Source of the DNA: an uncultured bacterium | Lineage (GTDB): Bacteria > Poribacteria > WGA-4E > WGA-3G | Assembly: GCA_964652195.1 (NCBI GenBank) | Contig: CAZZBB010000068.1 | Span: forward strand, 102,398 to 166,397 | Direction of reading: 5' to 3' | Length of the DNA: 64,000 bases | Part shown: piece after piece, positions 1,875-58,973 of the stretch | Position numbering within the stretch: position 1 is the first letter of the stretch | How the letters are laid out: the number at the start of each line of letters is the position of its first letter | Notes under the pieces: generated by a model | What the model saw: only the letters and a program-made list of their open reading frames with translations | Databases searched by the model: none | Told to the model about the DNA's origin: nothing | Made by a program: the position numbers and the translations under genes

Positions 1875-2555
1875 ATGATTATTACTTATCTGAGAAACCA
1901 TATATTCAAAAAACAGAATACATGGTTTAGTCATTCCTCAGACCCCTCAATTTGTCTTATAATGGTGTTTCTATCGGGATATTATATACATTCGAAATAT
2001 GCTATACTTTTAGGAATTGTCTTTGTTTTATTAGGTTTACATTTGATTACATTAAGCTTTTCCACGTTATCAGGTGACAGCATATCCAAACAATCACGCC
2101 TATTGAATTCTACTATGATAGTATCAGGGTGTTGCATTGTGTTTTTAGGTATAGTGACGAGTGTTCAAATATTTCCTAAACCTTACTGGATATCCCTATT
2201 GAGTATGGTCTTATTCAGTATCGCATTCTTAGCTTGTCTGAAAGTTTTTATGAATGAAAGTCCAATAATAAAAACCCGTGGAGTTAAATTGGGGGTAACG
2301 ATCTCTTCTGTAGTAGGAGTATATTCCTTAGGTTGGTACACATATCTACTTTTAAATGAAGTTGTATATGAAAAGACGATTAATACACCAGGTCCTCAAT
2401 TTATACCCTTGGTGTTTGTCAGTGGAATTGCAATCACTGCATGGTCAATGTTAATTATGCCAAAAGATCAGAAGAAAAGTTCCATAGTTCCAATCTATAT
2501 AATTTATGGTGTTCTTATGACAGGGATGGGTATAATCGGAATCATCTTTATATAA
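1875..2555 (+). CDS. Hypothetical polytopic membrane protein
   Basis: 226 aa with 6 or more predicted hydrophobic helices. No recognisable motif. Confidence 0.4.
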   Translation: MIITYLRNHIFKKQNTWFSHSSDPSICLIMVFLSGYYIHSKYAILLGIVFVLLGLHLITLSFSTLSGDSISKQSRLLNSTMIVSGCCIVFLGIVTSVQIFPKPYWISLLSMVLFSIAFLACLKVFMNESPIIKTRGVKLGVTISSVVGVYSLGWYTYLLLNEVVYEKTINTPGPQFIPLVFVSGIAITAWSMLIMPKDQKKSSIVPIYIIYGVLMTGMGIIGIIFI

Positions 2556-2659
2556 CCAGTACATATATTGATAGTGTTATACAATTAAATAGAACACCTC
2601 TATCATAGTATCTATGCTTAGAAATTCTATGATAGAGGTGTATCTCACAGTAACTGTAT

Positions 2660-3493
2660 CTATTCGCCAGGTATTTCAACCGGCAAGTCCAGCCGGTCTC
2701 CCCACTCTTTCCAAGAACCTATATAGTTGGCAACTTTTGGATAACCCAAGAGACGCAAAGCTAAATAGGACTGGGAAGAACGGTATCCACCTTGTCAGTA
2801 ACACATCACCTGTTTTTCAGGTGTCACACCTACATCTTCATACATCTGGCGTAGTTCATCTGCAGGTTTGAATGCACCGTTTTCATCAAGATTATTTAAC
2901 CATTCAATATGTACAGACCCAGGAATAGCCCCCGGACGCTCAGCACGAGCAACTCTCCCATAATGTTCATCATCCGTTCTGGTATCCAGAGCGACAAAAT
3001 CCTCTCGGTTAAGCAAATCATTAATCCCATCTGCATCCAGGTGTGTACTCGGTTTGGCATTGATAGGAAATTCTGACACTTCAGGCGGTTCAACCCCTTC
3101 TAAACAAACCTGACCATCAGCAACCACCCATGCTTTGAATCCTCCGTCAAGTAACTTTGTGTTAGGGTGACCTAAATATTCGCAGAACCAAAATCCGCGT
3201 GATGCACGTGTACCGGATATATCCTCATACCAAATGATCGTTTTGGATGAATCAATTCCTCTTTGTTGGAATAAATATGCGATCATCCACATAAAAGTGT
3301 CAAACATCTCTTTCCTTGTATCAATTAGACTCAAACCAAAAAGATCGAGGTGTAGTGCACCAGGTATATGTCCCATAATATATTCATGTGTAGGTCGCGT
3401 ATCTACAATACAGAGTGATTCATCATCTATATCCTTTATTAATGCCTCTGCAGAAACTACAAGTTCAGGGTTTGTATACCCTTTATCCCCCAT
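2660..3493 (-). CDS. Two-domain rhodanese (thiosulfate/3-mercaptopyruvate sulfurtransferase-like) with an in-frame TGA at 2795-2797 at the catalytic residue; candidate selenoprotein (277 aa if TGA=Sec)
   Basis: The listed ORF (232 aa) ends '...KQVMCY*'. The same frame then reads '[44 protein letters not shown]', a canonical rhodanese C-terminus. The active-site loop C-x-x-G-x-R-S becomes [TGA]-Q-G-G-Y-R-S, preceded by the typical Tyr. Confidence 0.7.
2795..2797 (-). other. In-frame UGA codon (candidate selenocysteine codon) inside the rhodanese gene
   Basis: The codon aligns to the catalytic Cys position of the rhodanese CxxGxRS loop. selA is present in the same window. TGA serves as a genuine stop elsewhere (e.g. 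38184-38186, 41300-41302, 42072-42074). Confidence 0.6.
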
Positions 3494-3520: not shown

Positions 3521-4885
3521 CTACCTTTGCTTATTTGTTAATTTGATTGTTTTCCATTTCCCAGTACGATACCAAAACCACATGGAGATTCCTTGGACAA
3601 CATTGGAAAGTGATATTCCAATCCATACTCCATTTAGTCCTATAATACGTGAAAACAGAATTACAAGCAACAATCCTACTCCCATTTGTGATCCTAATGT
3701 AATAATCATAGGAGAAAATGTATCCCCTGCACCATTTAGTGCTTTCCCTAATACTAATGAAAATGCTATAAAACCAAATGTAAGTGAGAGAAATTGAAGA
3801 TACATTGATCCAATTCTTACTACCTCAGGATCATCGTTGAATACTGTTACAAACACTTCTGGAAATAGAAGAAATAAAATTCCTATTCCCGACATAAGAA
3901 TTGTACCAATAATATTACCTATACGTGTGGTTGATTCGGCTCGTTCAATCTGATTCGCACCAATATTCTGACCTACTACAGGTGCAACAGCATTTGCAAT
4001 CCCGAAGCCAGGATTCATAACCAGAATACGTAATCGCATACAGATCGTATAAGCAGCAACAGCGAATTTGCCATACGGTCCAATTACCCAAAGAAATACA
4101 AGACGTGACAAATGTCGCCAGAATCCCTGCATAGAACTATAAATGCCTAACCTAAAAATGTCAAGCATTTCGATTATATCTGGTTGTAATTGGACATGTC
4201 TTAATGATAATGGAGATTTTCCTATCCAGATTAGAATCAGAAGTACTACTACTCCAAAACCTCTTCCAATTATCGTTGCGTATGCTGATCCAGCTACACC
4301 CAATTCAGGAAATATCCAAATGCCAAAAATCAAGAAAGGGTCTAATGCGATATTAATTACAGTAGAGAAAATTAACACAACCGTAGGTGTAACAGCATCT
4401 CCACCGGCACGGAAAATAGAACCAAGTGTCATAGATAGGAACATAGTGCTAATTCCTACCAGTATAATGTGCATATAGGTCGTACCAAGTTTTATCACCT
4501 CTTGATCTTCGATTCTTAATGAACGCAGCCCAAATTCTGATAATGGATAACCGATTACTCCTACCCCAATCGAAGCGAAAATTGCTAAAAGGATAGCTTG
4601 CATAGCTACATGTCCAGCTTGAGCATAGTTTCTTGCACCGAGGTATTGTGCAACCAAAATACCTGAACCAGTTGAGATACCGAGTGAAAATACACCTATT
4701 AATCGCAGCAAATTCCCACTCATTCCTACTGCTGCAATTGATGCAGGACCAAGTCTTCCTACAAAAATCATATCTACAACATTAAAGGCATCCTGAAGGA
4801 TGTAACCAAAAGTAATAGGAACTGCAAGTTTAATGAGATGACGGATTAAACTTCCTTCTGTCAAATCTTCTCGAGTCTGTTTCAT
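3521..4885 (-). CDS. MATE family efflux transporter
   Basis: 454 aa, 12-TM topology, NorM/DinF-like sequence pattern. Confidence 0.8.
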   Translation of the reverse strand: MKQTREDLTEGSLIRHLIKLAVPITFGYILQDAFNVVDMIFVGRLGPASIAAVGMSGNLLRLIGVFSLGISTGSGILVAQYLGARNYAQAGHVAMQAILLAIFASIGVGVIGYPLSEFGLRSLRIEDQEVIKLGTTYMHIILVGISTMFLSMTLGSIFRAGGDAVTPTVVLIFSTVINIALDPFLIFGIWIFPELGVAGSAYATIIGRGFGVVVLLILIWIGKSPLSLRHVQLQPDIIEMLDIFRLGIYSSMQGFWRHLSRLVFLWVIGPYGKFAVAAYTICMRLRILVMNPGFGIANAVAPVVGQNIGANQIERAESTTRIGNIIGTILMSGIGILFLLFPEVFVTVFNDDPEVVRIGSMYLQFLSLTFGFIAFSLVLGKALNGAGDTFSPMIITLGSQMGVGLLLVILFSRIIGLNGVWIGISLSNVVQGISMWFWYRTGKWKTIKLTNKQR

Positions 4886-6480: not shown

Positions 6481-9171
6481 CTATTCTGATTCATAACTAT
6501 TCACATGCTCATGAATCGGTTGTCGTTCAATATTTGCATGTGGATCGGCACGTCGCGCAATACCGGTTATATCGTCAACTGATTCATCTGCTTTGAATCG
6601 TTTATAAAGTTTACTGGATTTTGCAGCCATAGAGTGATTTTTAAGGGCCCGGTAACACCGCATCATATTGTAGTGTGCATCTAAATCTTCTGGATCAACC
6701 TTCAAACTCTTCTGAAAATAAGATATAGCGACCAGAAAATTCCTCTTTAGAAAATGCAATCGTCCTAATAGATTACTTACTCTCGTGTCTCGTGGAAATT
6801 GCTCTATAGCTTGCTCAACATGTTGTATTGCTAAATCGTAATTGCCATAAGATTCCTGTATGAGTCCATAAAAATAATGAACCTTTGCCCGATTCGGATC
6901 TGTCGGTGAAAGTGATTTCAGTAATTCTAAGGCTTGATTTAACACTGTTTCTGCTCCAGACATATCACCTTCTTTTATACGACATCTGGCAACATTAACC
7001 CATCCATCAAGATAACTCGGTTCAATTTCAGTCACTTTAAGAAAAACAGATTCCGCTTTTCTTAAATCTCCTTGTAGAAACAAACCAATTCCGTAATCAT
7101 TCCAACGTTCTCGTAAATTGCCTGTATTTAAGAGATGATTCTGTGTTGATTCTGTAATTTGTGAATTGTTCTTATCGGATTGTACATGTAGTTGGGTCTT
7201 TGCTTCAGCCATCACCACAATGGGTAGGTTTGGAATAGTCTTGATTTTTCCTGCAACATCAGTTGTATCCCCAGTCCAAATCCATTTCCCATTGTCATAA
7301 CCCTTATCGACCTTAAAATCCGTGTCCTCTGGATCGCGGACACCAGCATAAGCCCACTGTGTATGCCACCAGTTAAATTTTCGGTAATTAAGTTTTGCTT
7401 CTACACTAAGAGTATTTCCACTGTCTGATGGAATTTCTAATCGATAACGGACAGTATCGGCAGCCCCGGGAGGGATAGTATTTGAATATAACACTTTTCG
7501 CATTGCCCAAACATTCCGTTTGTTGATTAAGTTAGCATGTTCATCAAGCATATAACTTCGGTAAAAATGTGCACTTGGATCAACAGGACCATTTCCATCT
7601 GGTTCAGAAATCCTGCCATTCCAGAAAATAATCTTCCCGTTTTCATCGGTAATCTTCAATTCAAGCCAAATGTCAAAAGCATCAATTGTTCCAGTTGGAA
7701 AATGGTGTCCTACCCCTCTTGTACGAACTACTACCTCAATCAAAGTACTTTCGTTCCTGAAAATTGTTGAGCCATTGTCAGGTATTGGAGATCCATCGGC
7801 AAATATATCAAGTGTAATTACATCATTTTGTAGAAAATCGGTGACCGTTTTTAGTTGTTCGTCGTGTTTATTTACGTATGGAAGGGCTGTATTTGCAGCA
7901 GGAAATCTGTGACTGTGTACCTTACCTTTAATGTTTCCTGCATCCTTTGAATCTACCAAAGGCATATGGCAATCTACACATTTCTTTGCTTTTTCTGGAT
8001 AGTAGAATGATAGAGCACCTTGAAGTGAGACACCACTTTTCTGCCATTGATCATAGTCATTGAAACCTCGTATCCATCTGTAATTATTGACTGGATAATC
8101 AAGATGAACCTTATGACATGTAGAGCAAAATTCAGCAGTATTCTCTCGATGAAACGGCTTAATGAAGCTTTTTTTATGTGGTTCTGGATCAAGTCTAATT
8201 AAGTAGTTATGCATACTACGGATCAAACGATTATTGCTTGATGCGAGATTATGAAGTGGTGGATATTTAATTACATATCCACTATTTCCCATTGTATCTT
8301 TAACACGATCAATTGAATGACAGGCTGTACAAGCCAATCCAGCTTGAGCTGCAGGAGTATGTAAATTCTCACGAATAGGTTTATCCATTACACCGTTGAG
8401 TAGAATGGCAGGATCGTGACAACCACCACACCATTTTGATGGTTCTATCCCATTCACTTCCTGCATATAAATTATAGATTTACGATACCACTGGTTGTTA
8501 AAGGATGAAAAATGGTGTGCGGATTCGTTCCACTGTTTGTATATATCTGGATGACATTTACTTGAGCCACATGTTTCAGAATTTAGAAAAAAGTCTGTGT
8601 GTATAAGATTACCACTATCTGTCTCTACAGATGCTGGGAAGAAATGTCCTGTTGTACCTCCTCCTTCATCATACATACTACTTGGAGGAAATGCTGGATT
8701 TTCGACAAAATATGTTCTATTTGGGAAGAAATGCTGCGATAATTTAGCACCTATCGGAAAGAAAAGCACACCTACCAACACACTGATAAATATTTTTTGA
8801 AACTTCCCAGTAATATCATTAGTGTTCTTCAGTAGGTGTAGACTAAATAGAAGACTACCTATTGTAATGCTAATAATATGAGCTATTAGAAGCCAACGAT
8901 ATGGTGTTGATGCCCCTACTACCATCAAATAACCACCACTAACAGCACCTATTGTAAGGACAACTACACCTACTCTTCCAAAAACCGACATTGTTCTAAT
9001 ATTTTTAACTAAATAATAGCAGAAGAGTATTATAAGAAGACTTCCAAGTCCAATATGGATGAGTACATTTAGAATATAGAAGAGGGTTGGTTCACCAAAA
9101 CTAAATAGGTATGAACTATTTAGTAATAGTAAAAGAAAAGCATAAAGAGGTAATCTACGAATGTGTGTCAT
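6481..9171 (-). CDS. Membrane-anchored multihaem c-type cytochrome with C-terminal TPR domain
   Basis: 896 aa with 4 N-terminal TM helices. Contains CxxCH motifs CGGCH, CTACH, CSTCH and CVDCH, plus a possible CX4CH (CGSSKCH). The C-terminal ~200 aa are TPR-like repeats. Confidence 0.7.
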   Translation of the reverse strand: MTHIRRLPLYAFLLLLLNSSYLFSFGEPTLFYILNVLIHIGLGSLLIILFCYYLVKNIRTMSVFGRVGVVVLTIGAVSGGYLMVVGASTPYRWLLIAHIISITIGSLLFSLHLLKNTNDITGKFQKIFISVLVGVLFFPIGAKLSQHFFPNRTYFVENPAFPPSSMYDEGGGTTGHFFPASVETDSGNLIHTDFFLNSETCGSSKCHPDIYKQWNESAHHFSSFNNQWYRKSIIYMQEVNGIEPSKWCGGCHDPAILLNGVMDKPIRENLHTPAAQAGLACTACHSIDRVKDTMGNSGYVIKYPPLHNLASSNNRLIRSMHNYLIRLDPEPHKKSFIKPFHRENTAEFCSTCHKVHLDYPVNNYRWIRGFNDYDQWQKSGVSLQGALSFYYPEKAKKCVDCHMPLVDSKDAGNIKGKVHSHRFPAANTALPYVNKHDEQLKTVTDFLQNDVITLDIFADGSPIPDNGSTIFRNESTLIEVVVRTRGVGHHFPTGTIDAFDIWLELKITDENGKIIFWNGRISEPDGNGPVDPSAHFYRSYMLDEHANLINKRNVWAMRKVLYSNTIPPGAADTVRYRLEIPSDSGNTLSVEAKLNYRKFNWWHTQWAYAGVRDPEDTDFKVDKGYDNGKWIWTGDTTDVAGKIKTIPNLPIVVMAEAKTQLHVQSDKNNSQITESTQNHLLNTGNLRERWNDYGIGLFLQGDLRKAESVFLKVTEIEPSYLDGWVNVARCRIKEGDMSGAETVLNQALELLKSLSPTDPNRAKVHYFYGLIQESYGNYDLAIQHVEQAIEQFPRDTRVSNLLGRLHFLKRNFLVAISYFQKSLKVDPEDLDAHYNMMRCYRALKNHSMAAKSSKLYKRFKADESVDDITGIARRADPHANIERQPIHEHVNSYESE

Positions 9172-13946: not shown

Positions 13947-14795
13947 TTAATAAGATTTTGCACAACGAAATCCAACAGAACTACTATGGTCACTACATTG
14001 TGCGGGGTAGATATAGAATACTGTGGTACGGGTATCACCGTGACCATTTGTCCATGATCCTCCACGAATCGAGTAGACTATTCCATTTGTAATGTTGTTT
14101 TTTTCATTTGCAAGATCTATCAATTTATTATTATTTATAGTTGTTATTACCCATTCCCAAACATTACCTGCCATATCATGTATTCCAAATGGACTCACGC
14201 CCTTAGGATAACTACCGATAGAAGCAGTCTGTAATGCATACCCATCCAATTTTCCATCCATGTTACCATTATCATCAAAGTTTCCAAAAGACGTATTGTA
14301 CTCATTTCCCCATGGATACAGATGACCATCTATCCCTCTTGCGGCTTTTTCCCATTCTATATCGGTTGGTAATCTCTTACCCGCCCAATTTGCATAGGAC
14401 TCAGCATCATCCCAGTTAACACCTACAACAGGTTGATTCTGTGCATTTAGATTTGGATTCTCCCAAAACTTTGGTTTACGGTGTCCTGTATCTAAGAGGA
14501 ATTCCATGTACTGACCATTGGTGACTTCATACTTATCAATATAGAATGATTTAACGAAAACAGTTTGTTGATCGACTTCATTCCCGAAGGAATCCTCTGT
14601 TTTCTCATCAATTCCTATTGTAACTTCACCTGCTGGAATGAAGACCATTTCCTCTGTGTTTATGATTGAATCTTCATTGAACAAATTAGTCTCAGTGAAT
14701 GAGTCTGGAGAATCTTCACTGTTACAACCAATAAAGACTATATACAATATAAAGATAGAAATAAAATAGATGTAACTAAAAATTAAAAATCTCAT
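13947..14795 (-). CDS. Formylglycine-generating enzyme (FGE/SUMF1) family protein, secreted or lipoprotein
   Basis: 282 aa with an N-terminal signal/TM segment. The C-terminal 'RGGSW...C......VGFRCA' with two Cys is typical of the FGE-sulfatase domain. Confidence 0.75.
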   Translation of the reverse strand: MRFLIFSYIYFISIFILYIVFIGCNSEDSPDSFTETNLFNEDSIINTEEMVFIPAGEVTIGIDEKTEDSFGNEVDQQTVFVKSFYIDKYEVTNGQYMEFLLDTGHRKPKFWENPNLNAQNQPVVGVNWDDAESYANWAGKRLPTDIEWEKAARGIDGHLYPWGNEYNTSFGNFDDNGNMDGKLDGYALQTASIGSYPKGVSPFGIHDMAGNVWEWVITTINNNKLIDLANEKNNITNGIVYSIRGGSWTNGHGDTRTTVFYIYPAQCSDHSSSVGFRCAKSY

Positions 14796-14852: not shown

Positions 14853-16148
14853 TTATTCTGGTAGTTTAGGTTTTTGTAGAAGATGTTCAGGAGGTAATTC
14901 ACCCGTTAATGTTAGTAGAAATTCGACTAAATCACTCATTTCTTGTTCTGTTAGAATACCTGAATTGCGAGTAGATTCAGCTACCCCTACATATTCTGCT
15001 GTTGTAACATCATTTCTATTGAAACTCAGAATGGATTTCAATGTAGGAAAATCTCCAGTATGCATGTATGGAGCTGTTAGAGCCACATTTCTCAATGTTG
15101 GCGTTTTAAATTGCCCATCAGTATCAATTGTTCCTGACAATGAGTCAAGAACCAATTTTGGTATATCCGTATTATCACTATATATACCAAGTCCATTAAA
15201 TGGGTTCTCTAAGAGTTTTTTGATCCCATCAGATCTGCCATAATCTAATGGGAGATTCCCTTGAGGAAGACCGACATTGTGGAATCTATTGTCACTAAAA
15301 GTTGGTCCGTTATGGCATTGAATACAACTTCCTTGTCTAATAAAAACCTTTAGTCCCTGTTTAGCATCAATTCCAATTGCGTTGACATCCCCGGCTACAT
15401 ATTGGTCAAATGGTGAATTTCGACTGATTAATAGTCTTTCGTATGCTTCGATTGCTTTACCTATATTAGCAAGGATTGTATTGATTGCAATTTTATCAGC
15501 TTCTGACATATTATCAAACTGATAATCTCCTGGTTTACCATCTTTAGGAAAACGATTTGTATTAGTTAAATCTGGTAAAGACCCGAAAACTGATTCATAA
15601 TCTTCCTTATAGTGTTTATAGACTAAATGTGAAAACTGCAGACGATTACCAGCTTGCTCCTTCTCACCTTCTAATGCAAATATAGTTTGTGCCCAAAGTG
15701 AATCTGCACGTCCATCCCAAAATTGCCAATTATTGTATGCTGCATTTAATAATGTTGGAGCATTTCTGGTCCCCCTTCCGTTTCCTAATGATGTTGCCTC
15801 AATATCAGCAAATCCATGAAATGGAGAATGACATGTGGCACAAGCCACAGTTGCGTCTTTTGAGAATCTTTCATCAAAGAAAAACATCTGTCCTAACTTC
15901 GATGCTTTAGCGTTATCCGCAACTCGGTTTGTAGGACTGGGTGGTGGGTTATCAGGTAGTGGAGAGAGACTTTTAATTAGATCCCACTCACTTATCGTAA
16001 ATATGTCATCAATTGGTTTTGTACTTTCAGTTAATGGTAATGATCCATCATCTCCACAACTGATAATTAATATTGATATGCAGCAAATAAAATATAATAT
16101 AGTATTGCGACTATACTGCATATGTCTCAATAATGTATAATAGGGCAT
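14853..16148 (-). CDS. Di-haem cytochrome c peroxidase (CCP/MauG family), lipoprotein-like
   Basis: Two CxxCH motifs (CATCH, CIQCH). Contains the 'TPTLRNVALTAPYMHTG' and 'F...G.P' CCP signatures. Confidence 0.85.
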   Translation of the reverse strand: MPYYTLLRHMQYSRNTILYFICCISILIISCGDDGSLPLTESTKPIDDIFTISEWDLIKSLSPLPDNPPPSPTNRVADNAKASKLGQMFFFDERFSKDATVACATCHSPFHGFADIEATSLGNGRGTRNAPTLLNAAYNNWQFWDGRADSLWAQTIFALEGEKEQAGNRLQFSHLVYKHYKEDYESVFGSLPDLTNTNRFPKDGKPGDYQFDNMSEADKIAINTILANIGKAIEAYERLLISRNSPFDQYVAGDVNAIGIDAKQGLKVFIRQGSCIQCHNGPTFSDNRFHNVGLPQGNLPLDYGRSDGIKKLLENPFNGLGIYSDNTDIPKLVLDSLSGTIDTDGQFKTPTLRNVALTAPYMHTGDFPTLKSILSFNRNDVTTAEYVGVAESTRNSGILTEQEMSDLVEFLLTLTGELPPEHLLQKPKLPE

Positions 16149-19192: not shown

Positions 19193-20542
19193 CTACTGTC
19201 TCACATATCCTGTTGTCCCGTTCCGTTCTTGTTTATGTGTTTCCCAATATTCTTCGATACCATTTCGCCATGTCTGTGCTGCTTCTGTTAACTCATCAGT
19301 AATATCTGGATACTCGTCTTTTAGATTCTTGGTTTCACCCATATCTTCATTAAGATTTGCAAGGTGGACATCATCTTCAGGAGGTGCACCTTCCACTAAT
19401 CTACCGTTAAGGACTAATTTCCATTCGTTTCGCCGCATTGCTGTTTGATCTCCCATTTCCCAGAAAATATCCGTATGAGGTGAATACCATCCATCACACA
19501 CCATGCCTATTTGGTTTTTTCCATCAAGTTGATATTTTGATAAATCTCCGTCTGCAGCGGATAGGAACGTAGGAAACACATCCATAGCTGCCCCACAATG
19601 GTTAACAACATTTCCGGGTGGAATTTCCTTTGGCCAATGCATTATCCCTGGTGAACGAATTCCTCCTTCATATAAACTGAACTTATGTCCTTTTAGTTTA
19701 CCTGCACTTCCGCCATAATAAGGGTCTTGTGTTCCATCTAACCAGTTTCGAGTTTCCCGAGAGGGTCCATTGTCACTTTGGAAATATGAGAATGTATTCT
19801 CCGCGATGCCCTGACGTTCAAGTTCGGCAAAGATCGCGCCTACACTGTCATCAACTGCACTCAACATGGCAGCCATAATTTGTCTATCCCAAGGTAGATC
19901 TGGAAATCTAACTATATATTCTTGAGGAGCATGCATTGGATAGTGTGGTGCGTTATAAGGAACGTAGAGGAAAAATGGTTTTCCGATTTCAACAGATCTC
20001 CGTATATATTTGATGGCATATTCGGTAATTAATTCAGTAAAATACTCGCCATTTCGATATATTTCCTCACTATTTTCCCAAAGATCATGTGTTTGGTCAA
20101 AATCTGGTCTTCCCAATCCCCAATAAAAGATGTGAGAGTAGAAATCTATACATCCAGCCATGAAACCGAACCAATCATCAAACCCGTGATCTTCCGGTCT
20201 TGAACCTTCAGCGAGACCTAAATGCCATTTACCTGTCATCGCGGTATAATATCCAAGTTCCTTAAGAGCTGTGGAAATTGTTGGAACGGATGGTGGTAAT
20301 CCGGTAGCAGTTCTATGACCAGATAAAATTGATCTTACACCTGCATGTGCAGGATATCTACCTGTTAATACTGAAGCACGAGATGGTGAACAGACAGGTG
20401 AATTAGAGTACCAATCTGTAGAGCGGATACCTTCAGATGCCATTCTATCTATATGAGGTGTCTTAAAATCTGTTGCCCCCATACAGGATAAATCACCATA
20501 TCCTTGGTCATCAGTAAGAAAGATAATAAAATTGGTTTGCAT
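19193..20542 (-). CDS. Sulfatase (Cys-type, arylsulfatase-like) with no apparent signal peptide
   Basis: N-terminal 'FLTDDQGYGDL' and the FGly signature 'C-S-P-S-R' (CSPSRASVLTGRYP). 449 aa. Confidence 0.8.
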   Translation of the reverse strand: MQTNFIIFLTDDQGYGDLSCMGATDFKTPHIDRMASEGIRSTDWYSNSPVCSPSRASVLTGRYPAHAGVRSILSGHRTATGLPPSVPTISTALKELGYYTAMTGKWHLGLAEGSRPEDHGFDDWFGFMAGCIDFYSHIFYWGLGRPDFDQTHDLWENSEEIYRNGEYFTELITEYAIKYIRRSVEIGKPFFLYVPYNAPHYPMHAPQEYIVRFPDLPWDRQIMAAMLSAVDDSVGAIFAELERQGIAENTFSYFQSDNGPSRETRNWLDGTQDPYYGGSAGKLKGHKFSLYEGGIRSPGIMHWPKEIPPGNVVNHCGAAMDVFPTFLSAADGDLSKYQLDGKNQIGMVCDGWYSPHTDIFWEMGDQTAMRRNEWKLVLNGRLVEGAPPEDDVHLANLNEDMGETKNLKDEYPDITDELTEAAQTWRNGIEEYWETHKQERNGTTGYVRQ

Positions 20543-56707: not shown

Positions 56708-57568
56708 TCACTTCACAGTTCCTACATCCTTAACACATCTGAAACCTATAGTACTACCCGAACTAAGATGATACCATCGATCAGACACCCTAAGATCGTC
56801 TTTACTTCCACCCCAAGCTCCACCACGTAAGATCCTGAAATTACCGTTTTCAGGGGCTATACTCCTACCAAATCTGGGATTGTGTTCTGGTGAATTTCCA
56901 TAAAATTCACCATTATACTCATCAAAACACCATTCCCAAACATTCCCAATCATATCGTATAGACCATAATCATTTGGTGGAAAACTACCCACAGGTGATG
57001 TCCATTTCCAAATATCTTTTCCCTCAACACCCCCAAAATTTGCATCATCATGTGTGAGATAATTAGAAGTAGGATAGATCTTCCCTATCTGTCCACCTCG
57101 TGCTGCATATTCCCATTCCGCTTCTGTCGGCAACCGTTTTTTTGCCCAGTGTGCGTATGCCACAGCATCATTCCACGACACATTTACAACAGGATTGTCA
57201 GGTTTATTGAACTTTGGATCGTGCCACAAAGGTGGTGCGGAATAACCGGTTGCAATTACAAACATCTGATAGTGTGCATTTGTAACTTCGTAGACATCAA
57301 TATAAAAGGCATCAAGAGAAACAGTATGTAATGGCAACTCATCATCATCTCCAATATCGTTATGGGTATTTCCCATTTCAAATCGTCCAGATGGTATTAA
57401 CGTCATCTGTCTACCATCTATGATAGAGATTATACTCTTAGGCAACTCTCCTTCTATTAATGTCTGATTTGGGGGATCTGTACAAGAAGATATTATACAG
57501 ACTGAAATAAGAATTATAGAAATGGTCCTAATTTTTGTGTAATCCTTCAATTCTTGATGAAATCTCAT
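56708..57568 (-). CDS. FGE/SUMF1-family domain lipoprotein (FGE-sulfatase fold; one of the two conserved C-terminal cysteines is absent)
   Basis: Lipobox 'IISSC'. 'RGGAW…IGFRCV'. Overlaps selA by 41 nt. Confidence 0.7.
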   Translation of the reverse strand: MRFHQELKDYTKIRTISIILISVCIISSCTDPPNQTLIEGELPKSIISIIDGRQMTLIPSGRFEMGNTHNDIGDDDELPLHTVSLDAFYIDVYEVTNAHYQMFVIATGYSAPPLWHDPKFNKPDNPVVNVSWNDAVAYAHWAKKRLPTEAEWEYAARGGQIGKIYPTSNYLTHDDANFGGVEGKDIWKWTSPVGSFPPNDYGLYDMIGNVWEWCFDEYNGEFYGNSPEHNPRFGRSIAPENGNFRILRGGAWGGSKDDLRVSDRWYHLSSGSTIGFRCVKDVGTVK

Positions 57569-58973
57569 GAGCAGCTTGTATCAGACACTCTATTTCCACA
57601 TCATATAAGGTTCTGATATCAAAGAATAATTTATTATCCTCTATTCGTCCAATCACTGGAGTGCTTGCTTGCCGAAATAATTCCGACAGTTTTTCTACAG
57701 AAATCAACTTCGGACTTAACCCTACAGCAACACTGTTTAAAGTCTCTTCGGGAAGTGAACCGCTACCAATTTGAGATTTCGTTTCAGATGCTTCAATTGA
57801 AATACTATCTTGAAAAACACTCTGTAATCTCTCAGACACAGTTTCAGCAGAAGCATATAATTCCTCTACAGGACGGATGTATCGTTGTAACATTGGAAAA
57901 TCATCTGTAATCTCATTATCCAAAGATAGGTAATTCTGTAGTGTGGTTGAAAGCGCTGCAATTGTTAATTTATCAACTCTTAATGCTCGCATCAAAGGAT
58001 TTTTCCGTATCCGTTGTATCATCTCTGTTTTACCAGCAATTATTCCCGCTTGCGGACCACCTAACAATTTATCACCACTAAATGTGACTATATCAACTCC
58101 AGCTTGCATCCTATCCGCAACTACAGGTTCATAAGGAAGACCATAATTCGATAGATCCACTAATGCTCCGCTCCCCAAATCTTCCATGAGTGGTATATTA
58201 TGTTCCTTACCCAGTAGTGCTAATTCTTGGATGTCAGGGGTTGAAGTAAATCCAAGAATCTTATAATTACTTGGATGAACTTTGAGAAACAGTGAAGTAT
58301 TCTCATTAATTGCTTCTTCATAATCGCGTAGATGTGTTCTATTTGTTGTCCCTACTTCTCTAAGAATAGCACCACTTGATGTCATTACATCAGGTATACG
58401 GAATGCACCTCCAATTTCTATGAGTTCTCCTCGTGAAACAATTACCTCTTTACCTCTTGCAAGAGTATTCAATGAAATGAGTACTGCAGCAGCATTATTA
58501 TTAACTATAGTAGAAGCTTCACAACTGGTTAATTCTTGAAGTAAGGGTTCAGTTAATCGATCCCTATGTCCCCTTGTTCCTGTTTCTAAGTCGTATTCTA
58601 AATTAACATAATTCTGTGCAGCCTTTGTAATACTATTACACACTGATTCTGGGAGTAATGATCGTCCAAGATTCGTATGTGTCACAGTTCCAGTAGCATT
58701 TATTACAGTACGGATAGGTGGTTTTAATTTATCCTTAAGATGTTGAATAACTAATTCAGGAAATTCATCACGGTGAGGAATATTAATCTCAGTATTACCT
58801 TCTAAAATCTGTGATCTGAAATCTGAAACGATAGAACGCAATATGTCCGTAACCAGTGATCTTGAATACGATTCAACTAATTTGATGATTTCAGGTTGCG
58901 TCAGAAGTTTTTCAATTGCAGGCAGTTTTTGAAGTAATTCTTCCTTTTCGTTTCCGATTTTTTCTGTAGACAA
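57528..58973 (-). CDS. selA: L-seryl-tRNA(Sec) selenium transferase (selenocysteine synthase)
   Basis: Blocks 'INATGTVTHTNLGRS', 'IVNNNAAAV', 'VSRGELIEIGGAFRIPDV', 'EVGTTNRTH' and 'FSGDKLLGGPQAGII' match E. coli SelA closely. 481 aa. Confidence 0.9.
   Translation of the reverse strand: MSTEKIGNEKEELLQKLPAIEKLLTQPEIIKLVESYSRSLVTDILRSIVSDFRSQILEGNTEINIPHRDEFPELVIQHLKDKLKPPIRTVINATGTVTHTNLGRSLLPESVCNSITKAAQNYVNLEYDLETGTRGHRDRLTEPLLQELTSCEASTIVNNNAAAVLISLNTLARGKEVIVSRGELIEIGGAFRIPDVMTSSGAILREVGTTNRTHLRDYEEAINENTSLFLKVHPSNYKILGFTSTPDIQELALLGKEHNIPLMEDLGSGALVDLSNYGLPYEPVVADRMQAGVDIVTFSGDKLLGGPQAGIIAGKTEMIQRIRKNPLMRALRVDKLTIAALSTTLQNYLSLDNEITDDFPMLQRYIRPVEELYASAETVSERLQSVFQDSISIEASETKSQIGSGSLPEETLNSVAVGLSPKLISVEKLSELFRQASTPVIGRIEDNKLFFDIRTLYDVEIECLIQAAHEISSRIEGLHKN

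Follow-up and report, generated by a model that had tools for sequence, protein, structure and literature searches.

In the 64,000-nucleotide (nt) stretch of Poribacteria DNA analysed here, hereafter called the window, a minus-strand gene for a rhodanese-type sulfurtransferase is interrupted by an in-frame UGA at codon 233, the position of the catalytic cysteine. The best explanation of all the observations taken together is that this UGA encodes selenocysteine (Sec) in a 277-residue tandem rhodanese, and that its decoding is directed by two RNA elements downstream of it, P2 and P3. We consider this explanation very probable. The enzyme would be a sulfurtransferase of the thiosulfate/3-mercaptopyruvate type. 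Our comparison of the Sec-encoding genes (Sec forms) with their cysteine-encoding homologues (Cys forms) shows a conserved RNA structure with covariation downstream of the UGA, which is specific to the Sec forms.

A tandem rhodanese gene with an in-frame UGA

The rhodanese open reading frame (ORF) starts with an ATG at 3493 on the minus strand and reaches the TGA at 2797..2795 after K-Q-V-M-C-Y, with TGT-TAC-TGA as codons 231-233. The same frame is open for 44 codons past the TGA, until the TAG at 2662..2660. The original prediction, which was made from the window alone, had described the VMCY-TGA end with its clean in-frame continuation of 44 codons, and had recognized a rhodanese C-terminus in the latter. 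Translation confirms the reading frame to the base, and the Pfam search agrees with the assignment: PF00581 matches two rhodanese stretches in the read-through product, and the second domain (residues 157-265, E 4e-35) spans the TGA.

The best relatives in the PDB, 1UAR from Thermus thermophilus (E 1.5e-37) and 1E0C, the RhdA protein of Azotobacter vinelandii (9e-35), align with the product from end to end. They have the same two domains, the loop C-x-x-x-x-R followed by Ser, and the GSW.EWG motif. In these alignments, the N-terminal domain lacks the catalytic Cys and has Asp (YEDISG) at the loop position, while the UGA is aligned with the catalytic Cys230 of RhdA (cqggyrs versus CQTHHRS), as had been claimed for it. 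The predicted gene product is a tandem rhodanese, composed of an inactive N-terminal domain and a catalytic C-terminal domain with the loop U-Q-G-G-Y-R-S. It differs from 1UAR and 1E0C in that the catalytic residue is encoded by UGA instead of a Cys codon, in the loop sequence (QGGYR, as compared to QTHHR or RIAER), and in the Cys at position -2. The best NCBIfam equivalog is 3-mercaptopyruvate sulfurtransferase, with 107.8 bits, under the cut-off of 250.

Conservation was assessed in a DNA sample with one genome per species. The 80 best loci are all from Poribacteria, and together with the window they give 81 genes. A TGA followed by QGGYRS is present at the equivalent of codon 233 in all 80 species-representative loci. 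The TGA is also found in 8 further metagenome contigs, and all 89 members of the clade thus carry it. The doubt raised earlier, whether the codon might in fact be TGC or TGT, is thereby settled in favour of TGA. In addition, a protein search with the read-through product returned about 85 closest relatives (62-94% identity), nearly all from Candidatus Poribacteria. These are annotated with 231-244 amino acids (aa), or 83-84% of the query, and all of them stop at (M/V)CY; the truncated product given in the public Poribacteria records has 232 aa for this enzyme. Relatives at a greater distance (56-59% identity) have the full length of 274-299 aa.

Is the region beyond the UGA coding? The tail measures 44-52 codons in all 81 genes, its peptide is nearly invariant, and no indel breaks its frame. 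For the 41 codons that follow the UGA, the column entropy in the 81 genes averages 0.14 at the first codon position, 0.02 at the second, and 0.74 at the third, while just beyond the TAG all three have about 1.9. The codon differences from the window tail comprise 1333 synonymous and 202 non-synonymous changes. These substitution patterns show purifying selection on the tail. TGA is nevertheless an ordinary stop codon, as had been noted earlier for the window: it is the true terminator in 6 of the 81 genes, and in the window it closes 9 further long ORFs, the next in-frame stop being only 0-28 codons away. The genetic code is therefore not reassigned. We found no other meaningful TGA read-through ORF in the 64-kb window.

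The homologues outside the close Poribacteria cluster show which residue corresponds to the UGA. A metagenome scan with the alignment of the Cys forms as the query returned 80 loci, in which the catalytic codon is TGC in 60, TGT in 12, and TGA in 8. Overall, the column has TGA in 89 homologues and TGC or TGT in 72, which constitutes a Sec/Cys pair. The original prediction had expected such a pair, and the comparison of orthologues bears this out, with TGA in Poribacteria and TGC or TGT in the more distant homologues. Seven of the eight metagenome TGA loci have just 54-60% protein identity to the window, and the UGA form therefore reaches beyond the close Poribacteria cluster. The Cys at position -2, giving C-Y-U, is present in 99% of the Sec forms, while Ser, Pro, or Ala is the usual residue there in the Cys forms.

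In the neighbour-joining tree, one split contains all 89 Sec forms together with four Cys forms from metagenomes (L092, L124, L133, and L148). These four retain a C-Y-C motif and lack the P3 hairpin described below. They could be reversions from Sec to Cys, or could represent the ancestral state.

A conserved RNA structure downstream of the UGA

In the following, RNA positions are numbered such that nt 1 is the U of the UGA. The structure tests compare 83 distinct Sec-form sequences with 65 Cys forms, and the codon comparison uses 86 Sec forms. P2 is a rod-like RNA that starts 11 nt past the UGA. In the window, its closing helix is formed by CCGUUCUU (2783..2776), which pairs with AAGAGUGG (2709..2702); the consensus is CCGYUCUU at nt 15-22 with AAGARUGG at nt 89-96, and further helices are stacked within. 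P3 follows after a gap of three nucleotides. This hairpin, with the consensus GACCGGC-UGGAYYU-GCCGGUC, is present in every Sec form and decayed in the Cys forms.

The comparative support for these helices is as follows. First, 95.6% of the P2 and P3 pairing is retained in the 83 Sec forms, with changes on both sides at 9 pairs, and none of the 500 shuffles matches the observed value in four of the five measures. When the pairing partners are slid by 1-3 columns, the pairing is only 31-48%. Second, when the 65 Cys forms are fitted to this structure, the pairing reaches 65.5% and does not surpass that of the shuffles. The closing helix of P2 is paired at 98.5% in the Sec forms, as compared to 69.5% in the Cys forms, and P3 is paired at 99.1% in the Sec forms. 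Third, individual pairs covary. Pair 18-93 is CG in 58 sequences, UA in 17, and UG in 8, with no CA and no broken pair (Fisher p 5e-12); it joins the third base of Arg +5 with the third base of Glu +30, two synonymous sites 75 nt apart. In P3, compensatory changes convert 102-118 from CG to UA and 103-117 from CG to AU, and the natural variants include AGG...CCU in place of CGG...CCG and GAU...AUC in place of GAC...GUC.

The single-sequence minimum free energy (MFE) folds differ between the two forms as well. P3 appears in the MFE fold of 81 of the 83 Sec forms and of one of the 65 Cys forms, and the P2 closing helix in 64 Sec forms and one Cys form. The mean energy of the P3 hairpin is -12.4 kcal/mol in the Sec forms, versus -2.5 kcal/mol in the Cys forms. 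The Cys forms are richer in G+C than the Sec forms, and yet the P2 and P3 folds are rarer in them. Outside the rhodanese genes, no other P3-like hairpin was found in 0.85 Mb of sequence.

The codon choices specific to the Sec forms agree with the P2 and P3 helices. Tyr +4 is TAC in 86 of 86 Sec forms, while the Cys forms use TAC (37) and TAT (30). Among the Sec forms, Arg +5 is encoded by CGC or CGT only, and Ser +6 by TCT in 83 of 86. Codon +7 specifies Ser (TCN) in the Sec forms and always Ala in the Cys forms, the Ser-Ser of the former corresponding to Ser/Ala-Ala in the latter, and position +39 is Val in the Sec forms and Ile in the Cys forms. The AAA codon of Lys +29 is nearly invariant in the Sec forms, with a synonymous-codon entropy of 0.16, as compared to 1.0 in the Cys forms. 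A test for reduced synonymous variation near the UGA alone gave no significant result (permutation p 0.12); the follow-up of this result brought out a second constrained stretch, codons +29 to +38, and led to P3.

Proposed decoding of the UGA

How might this RNA direct the insertion of Sec? In Escherichia coli fdhF, the minimal hairpin of the Sec insertion sequence (SECIS) must begin 11 nt after the UGA. The P2/P3 structure likewise starts 11 nt after the UGA. It also resembles the canonical bacterial SECIS (bSECIS) of the fdhF type, as modelled by Zhang and Gladyshev, in that it lies within the coding sequence, past the UGA, and the energy of P3 is near -12 kcal/mol. The difference is that an 82-nt rod sits here between the UGA and the hairpin. 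The bSECIS model places the loop 16-37 nt from the UGA and requires that one of the first two loop nucleotides be G, and some bacterial elements fall outside it (PMC13188914). P3 satisfies the rules for the stem (7 base pairs, bp), the loop (7 nt), the early G (U-G-G), and the energy. With a folded P2 skipped, the distance between the UGA and the P3 loop amounts to 11 + 3 + 7 = 21 nt and falls within the canonical limits. The expectation of a SECIS hairpin about 11 nt after the UGA needs correction: a conserved structure does start there, but the simple hairpin is absent, and the 82-nt rod with its hairpin is found instead.

Because P3 fits the consensus, the path by way of the folded P2 measures 21 nt, and P2 starts at 11 nt as in fdhF, we propose that P2 and P3 together may constitute a bipartite SECIS. 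The decoding would be directed by the RNA within the last 44 codons, which consists of 11 unpaired nt, P2, 3 nt, and P3. P2 would act as a clamp: docked where the mRNA enters the ribosome, it would offer P3, the hairpin that probably binds SelB, to this factor. Through the junction, the P3 loop would then be about 21 nt from the UGA, which is the place of a canonical SECIS loop when the UGA is in the A site. Such an element would represent an undescribed class of bacterial SECIS, in which over 100 nt of linear sequence separate the SelB-binding hairpin from the UGA, and in which P2 brings this hairpin into register at the ribosomal mRNA entrance. The need for the RNA would also have shaped the protein, which has Ser-Ser, Leu, and Val where the Cys forms have Ala, variable residues, and Ile. 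We put this joint proposal forward tentatively, with somewhat more doubt than confidence.

As for the enzyme, Sec233, inserted at the UGA, would be the catalytic nucleophile and would carry sulfane sulfur (or selenium) as an Se-S (selenopersulfide) adduct. The clade-specific Cys231 could resolve or protect the intermediate by forming a selenenylsulfide with Sec233, a role that we infer only from the C-x-U motif.

Could Sec be inserted by a conventional hairpin close to the UGA, with P2 and P3 kept for mRNA stability, ribosome pausing, or regulation? Hairpins do form directly after the UGA, and the helix 5-11/15-21 is 95.8% paired. However, the proximal hairpins 5-11/15-21 (3-nt loop) and 6-12/19-25 (6-nt loop) have no covariation beyond the shuffles, and their loops lack a G at the first two positions. 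Since these loops are just 8-9 nt from the UGA, they would be inside the ribosomal mRNA channel during decoding. A scan of the 86 Sec forms with the bSECIS rules found as the best candidate a hairpin with the loop GUUGCG at +39, 35 nt from the UGA, which passes in 57 of the 86 sequences; neither the window nor any of the divergent Sec forms has this hairpin, however, and better-supported P2 pairs take up its bases. P2 and P3 are the only elements that are present in all 83 Sec forms and missing from the Cys forms. A local SECIS is therefore unlikely.

The other searches for a conventional element gave the following results. A simple hairpin within the first 70 nt after the UGA was discarded, as the window fold is equal to the shuffles (z 0.09). 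A composite of 15-18/42-45 and 24-28/33-37 was discarded as well; it is 88% paired with no excess covariation, and the same bases are better supported in P2. No hairpin that passes all of the bSECIS rules is conserved among the 86 Sec forms, and Rfam gave no match at the gathering threshold and only chance-level matches at E up to 10.

Next, we consider the Sec machinery. The only gene for it in the window is selA, encoding Sec synthase; this assignment had been made before, and the TIGR00474 score supports it (Table 1). Close SelA homologues occur across Poribacteria, many of them titled L-seryl-tRNA(Sec) selenium transferase, and selA is on the same contig or chromosome as the rhodanese gene in several Poribacteria (e.g., on contigs of 343,272 bp and 91,401 bp). 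Sec-containing group 4 [NiFeSe] hydrogenases are known from Poribacteria (PMC13582414), and SelA has been found together with SelB in sponge-symbiont bins (PMC5649159).

An FGE-sulfatase-domain gene (56708..57568, minus strand) follows selA in the window with a 41-nt overlap, and the same order is found on two other Poribacteria contigs (L163, 11556..12248; L164, 11410..12219). Its product has weak NCBIfam matches to EgtB and to the selenoneine synthase SenA, at 96-116 bits and below the cut-offs. A selenium-related role of this gene beside selA is conceivable.

The UGA might also be recoded without Sec, if a near-cognate tRNA for Trp or Cys decoded it and the RNA structure stimulated read-through in a general way. 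An RNA element that departs from the canonical SECIS model would suit this view, as would the lack of a visible selB in the window and the predictive nature of the Sec assignment. On the other hand, the column is strictly Cys in the homologues without UGA, which is the signature of a Sec/Cys pair, and selA, the sole role of which is the making of Sec-tRNA, is found intact in these very genomes and is conserved among them. We regard such recoding as very unlikely.

If the UGA were a true stop, the product would be a 232-residue rhodanese without the catalytic loop, and the tail would be decaying or non-coding. The public records do all annotate the short product (231-234 aa), and TGA is a normal stop in the same genome. 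Nonetheless, the amino acids of the tail are conserved in 89 genes, down to about 55% identity, and the variation in it is at third codon positions, in a frame unbroken by indels. Moreover, the short product would end before the catalytic residue and would be without the final strands of the domain, and the terminator-like repeat is located after the TAG and not after the TGA. Termination at the UGA is thus highly improbable. Finally, a sequencing or assembly error for TGC or TGT, for which nothing speaks beyond the prior expectation for one lone sequence, is refuted by the TGA in 89 independent assemblies, including long-read complete chromosomes; because of the conserved TGA, the coding tail, and the TGA stops elsewhere, sequencing error, a pseudogene, and a reassigned code are all ruled out.

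We therefore favour Sec at codon 233 with decoding directed by P2 and P3, although several points weigh against this explanation. The P3 loop is 103 nt from the UGA, as compared to the allowed 16-37 nt, and fails the spacing rule of the bSECIS model. We found no description of a rod-plus-hairpin SECIS in the literature, and the idea of P2 as a clamp is without precedent there. The 129-nt fold of the window (-40.1 kcal/mol) is only modestly better than the shuffles (z -1.56), and the case for P2 and P3 therefore rests on sequence comparison and not on thermodynamics. Since all Sec forms, along with four Cys forms, are on one side of a single split of the tree, it may be that very few evolutionary events underlie the link between the RNA structure and Sec. 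With regard to the machinery, ARAGORN found no tRNA genes in the 64-kb window, including tRNA-Sec, and Pfam found neither SelB nor SelD in the products of its approximately 50 ORFs with 150 aa or more; in two other Poribacteria, likewise, no selB, selD, or tRNA-Sec was found at up to 10 kb from selA. In addition, Poribacteria are uncultivated, and the Sec assignment is a prediction from sequence.

Neighbouring genes, related selenoproteins, and significance

Table 1. Features of the rhodanese locus and of selA in the window
Feature	Position	Strand	Basis and remarks
Full read-through rhodanese gene	2660..3493	-	277 codons including UGA codon 233, then TAG; sequence and translation
In-frame UGA, codon 233, predicted Sec at the catalytic-Cys position	2795..2797	-	RhdA alignment, homologue counts
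Cys231 codon TGT, C-x-U motif, candidate resolving cysteine	2801..2803	-	role inferred
True stop TAG	2660..2662	-	sequence
P2, 82-nt rod-like RNA, nt 15-96	2702..2783	-	comparative pairing
P3, 7-bp hairpin, nt 100-120	2678..2698	-	GACCGGC-UGGACUU-GCCGGUU in the window; loop 2691..2685
MATE-family transporter, probable operon member	3521..4885	-	PF01554; 27 nt upstream of rhodanese
Inverted repeat, 18-nt arms	2594..2641	.	94% complementary, 12 nt between arms; past TAG
selA, selenocysteine synthase	57528..58973	-	PF03841 E 6e-155; TIGR00474 597 bits (cut-off 268)

A gene for a MATE-family transporter is directly upstream of the rhodanese gene, on the same strand, in 78 of the 80 Poribacteria loci. 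This linkage suggests that the two products share a task, and the rhodanese gene would be co-transcribed with that of the MATE exporter. At the other end, the inverted repeat listed in Table 1 is situated between two convergent genes, 1875..2555 (plus strand) and the rhodanese gene (minus strand). The repeat is probably a bidirectional terminator, and was missed by the terminator scan because its loop is longer than 8 nt.

At a distance of 3 kb from the rhodanese gene, the window encodes an 896-aa multihaem cytochrome c / TPR protein (6481..9171, minus strand), without an in-frame TGA. An 898-aa homologue (L164, 2919..5615) is encoded about 4 kb from selA in another Poribacteria genome. The window also contains a second FGE-sulfatase-domain paralogue, which adjoins a di-haem cytochrome c peroxidase gene and has a sulfatase gene nearby (13947..14795, 14853..16148, and 19193..20542, all on the minus strand).

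How does the enzyme relate to the known selenoproteins? The original prediction had considered rhodanese-like selenoproteins to be rarely predicted, but they are not so rare. A selenoprotein family of COG2897/cd01449 was predicted in 2005 and 2008 (PMC1088965, PMC2398784). The first of these studies reported a rhodanese-related sulfurtransferase (COG2897) in three Sargasso Sea sequences, with a predicted SECIS drawn for one (PMC1088965), and the second found selenoprotein forms of cd01449, COG0607, and COG2897 in the Global Ocean Sampling (GOS) metagenomes (PMC2398784). A review from 2026 lists five rhodanese selenoprotein forms, two of which have a UxxG motif (PMC13188914).

The Poribacteria gene fits the UxxG tandem-domain type of these predicted rhodanese selenoproteins. 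It shares with the COG2897/cd01449 family the tandem sulfurtransferase architecture, the UGA at the catalytic Cys, and the U-x-x-G motif (here U-Q-G-G), and that family likewise comes from marine uncultivated bacteria and is known solely as sequences. In contrast, the members of that family are reported to have consensus SECIS-like stem-loops right after the UGA, while the sole conserved element here is the rod plus hairpin with its loop at 103 nt. The published representatives AACY01016424 and MCY3690685.1 may or may not belong to the same clade as the Poribacteria gene. The COG2897/cd01449 literature examined does not speak of a C-x-U motif, of a linkage to MATE, or of an occurrence throughout the phylum Poribacteria. 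The NCBIfam family NF041203 ('LYCAU', form 3, CxU) has the same rhodanese fold and a C-x-U motif, but its proteins have one domain only and a length of about 126 aa, and the Poribacteria gene is not a member (27.7 bits versus the cut-off of 115). Neither does it belong to the TsoB selenoprotein family NF045694 (18 bits versus the cut-off of 805).

These results correct the annotation of this enzyme across a phylum that includes sponge symbionts and free-living marine relatives: what is recorded as a dead 232-aa fragment is very probably a full-length selenoenzyme. They also add a phylum-wide, single-copy case to a selenoprotein family known from scattered metagenome reads. As a new phylum-wide member of a known predicted family, the protein is of moderate interest alone, and the RNA result carries more weight. 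The predicted insertion signal has covariation in its favour and seems to be a novel variety of bacterial SECIS. With their compensatory changes, the 83 natural variants provide a ready design for mutational tests. If the rod plus hairpin works as proposed, the geometry demanded by SelB would be met by a tertiary arrangement instead of a linear distance, and searches for bacterial selenoproteins, which usually demand a loop 16-37 nt after the UGA, would miss such genes.

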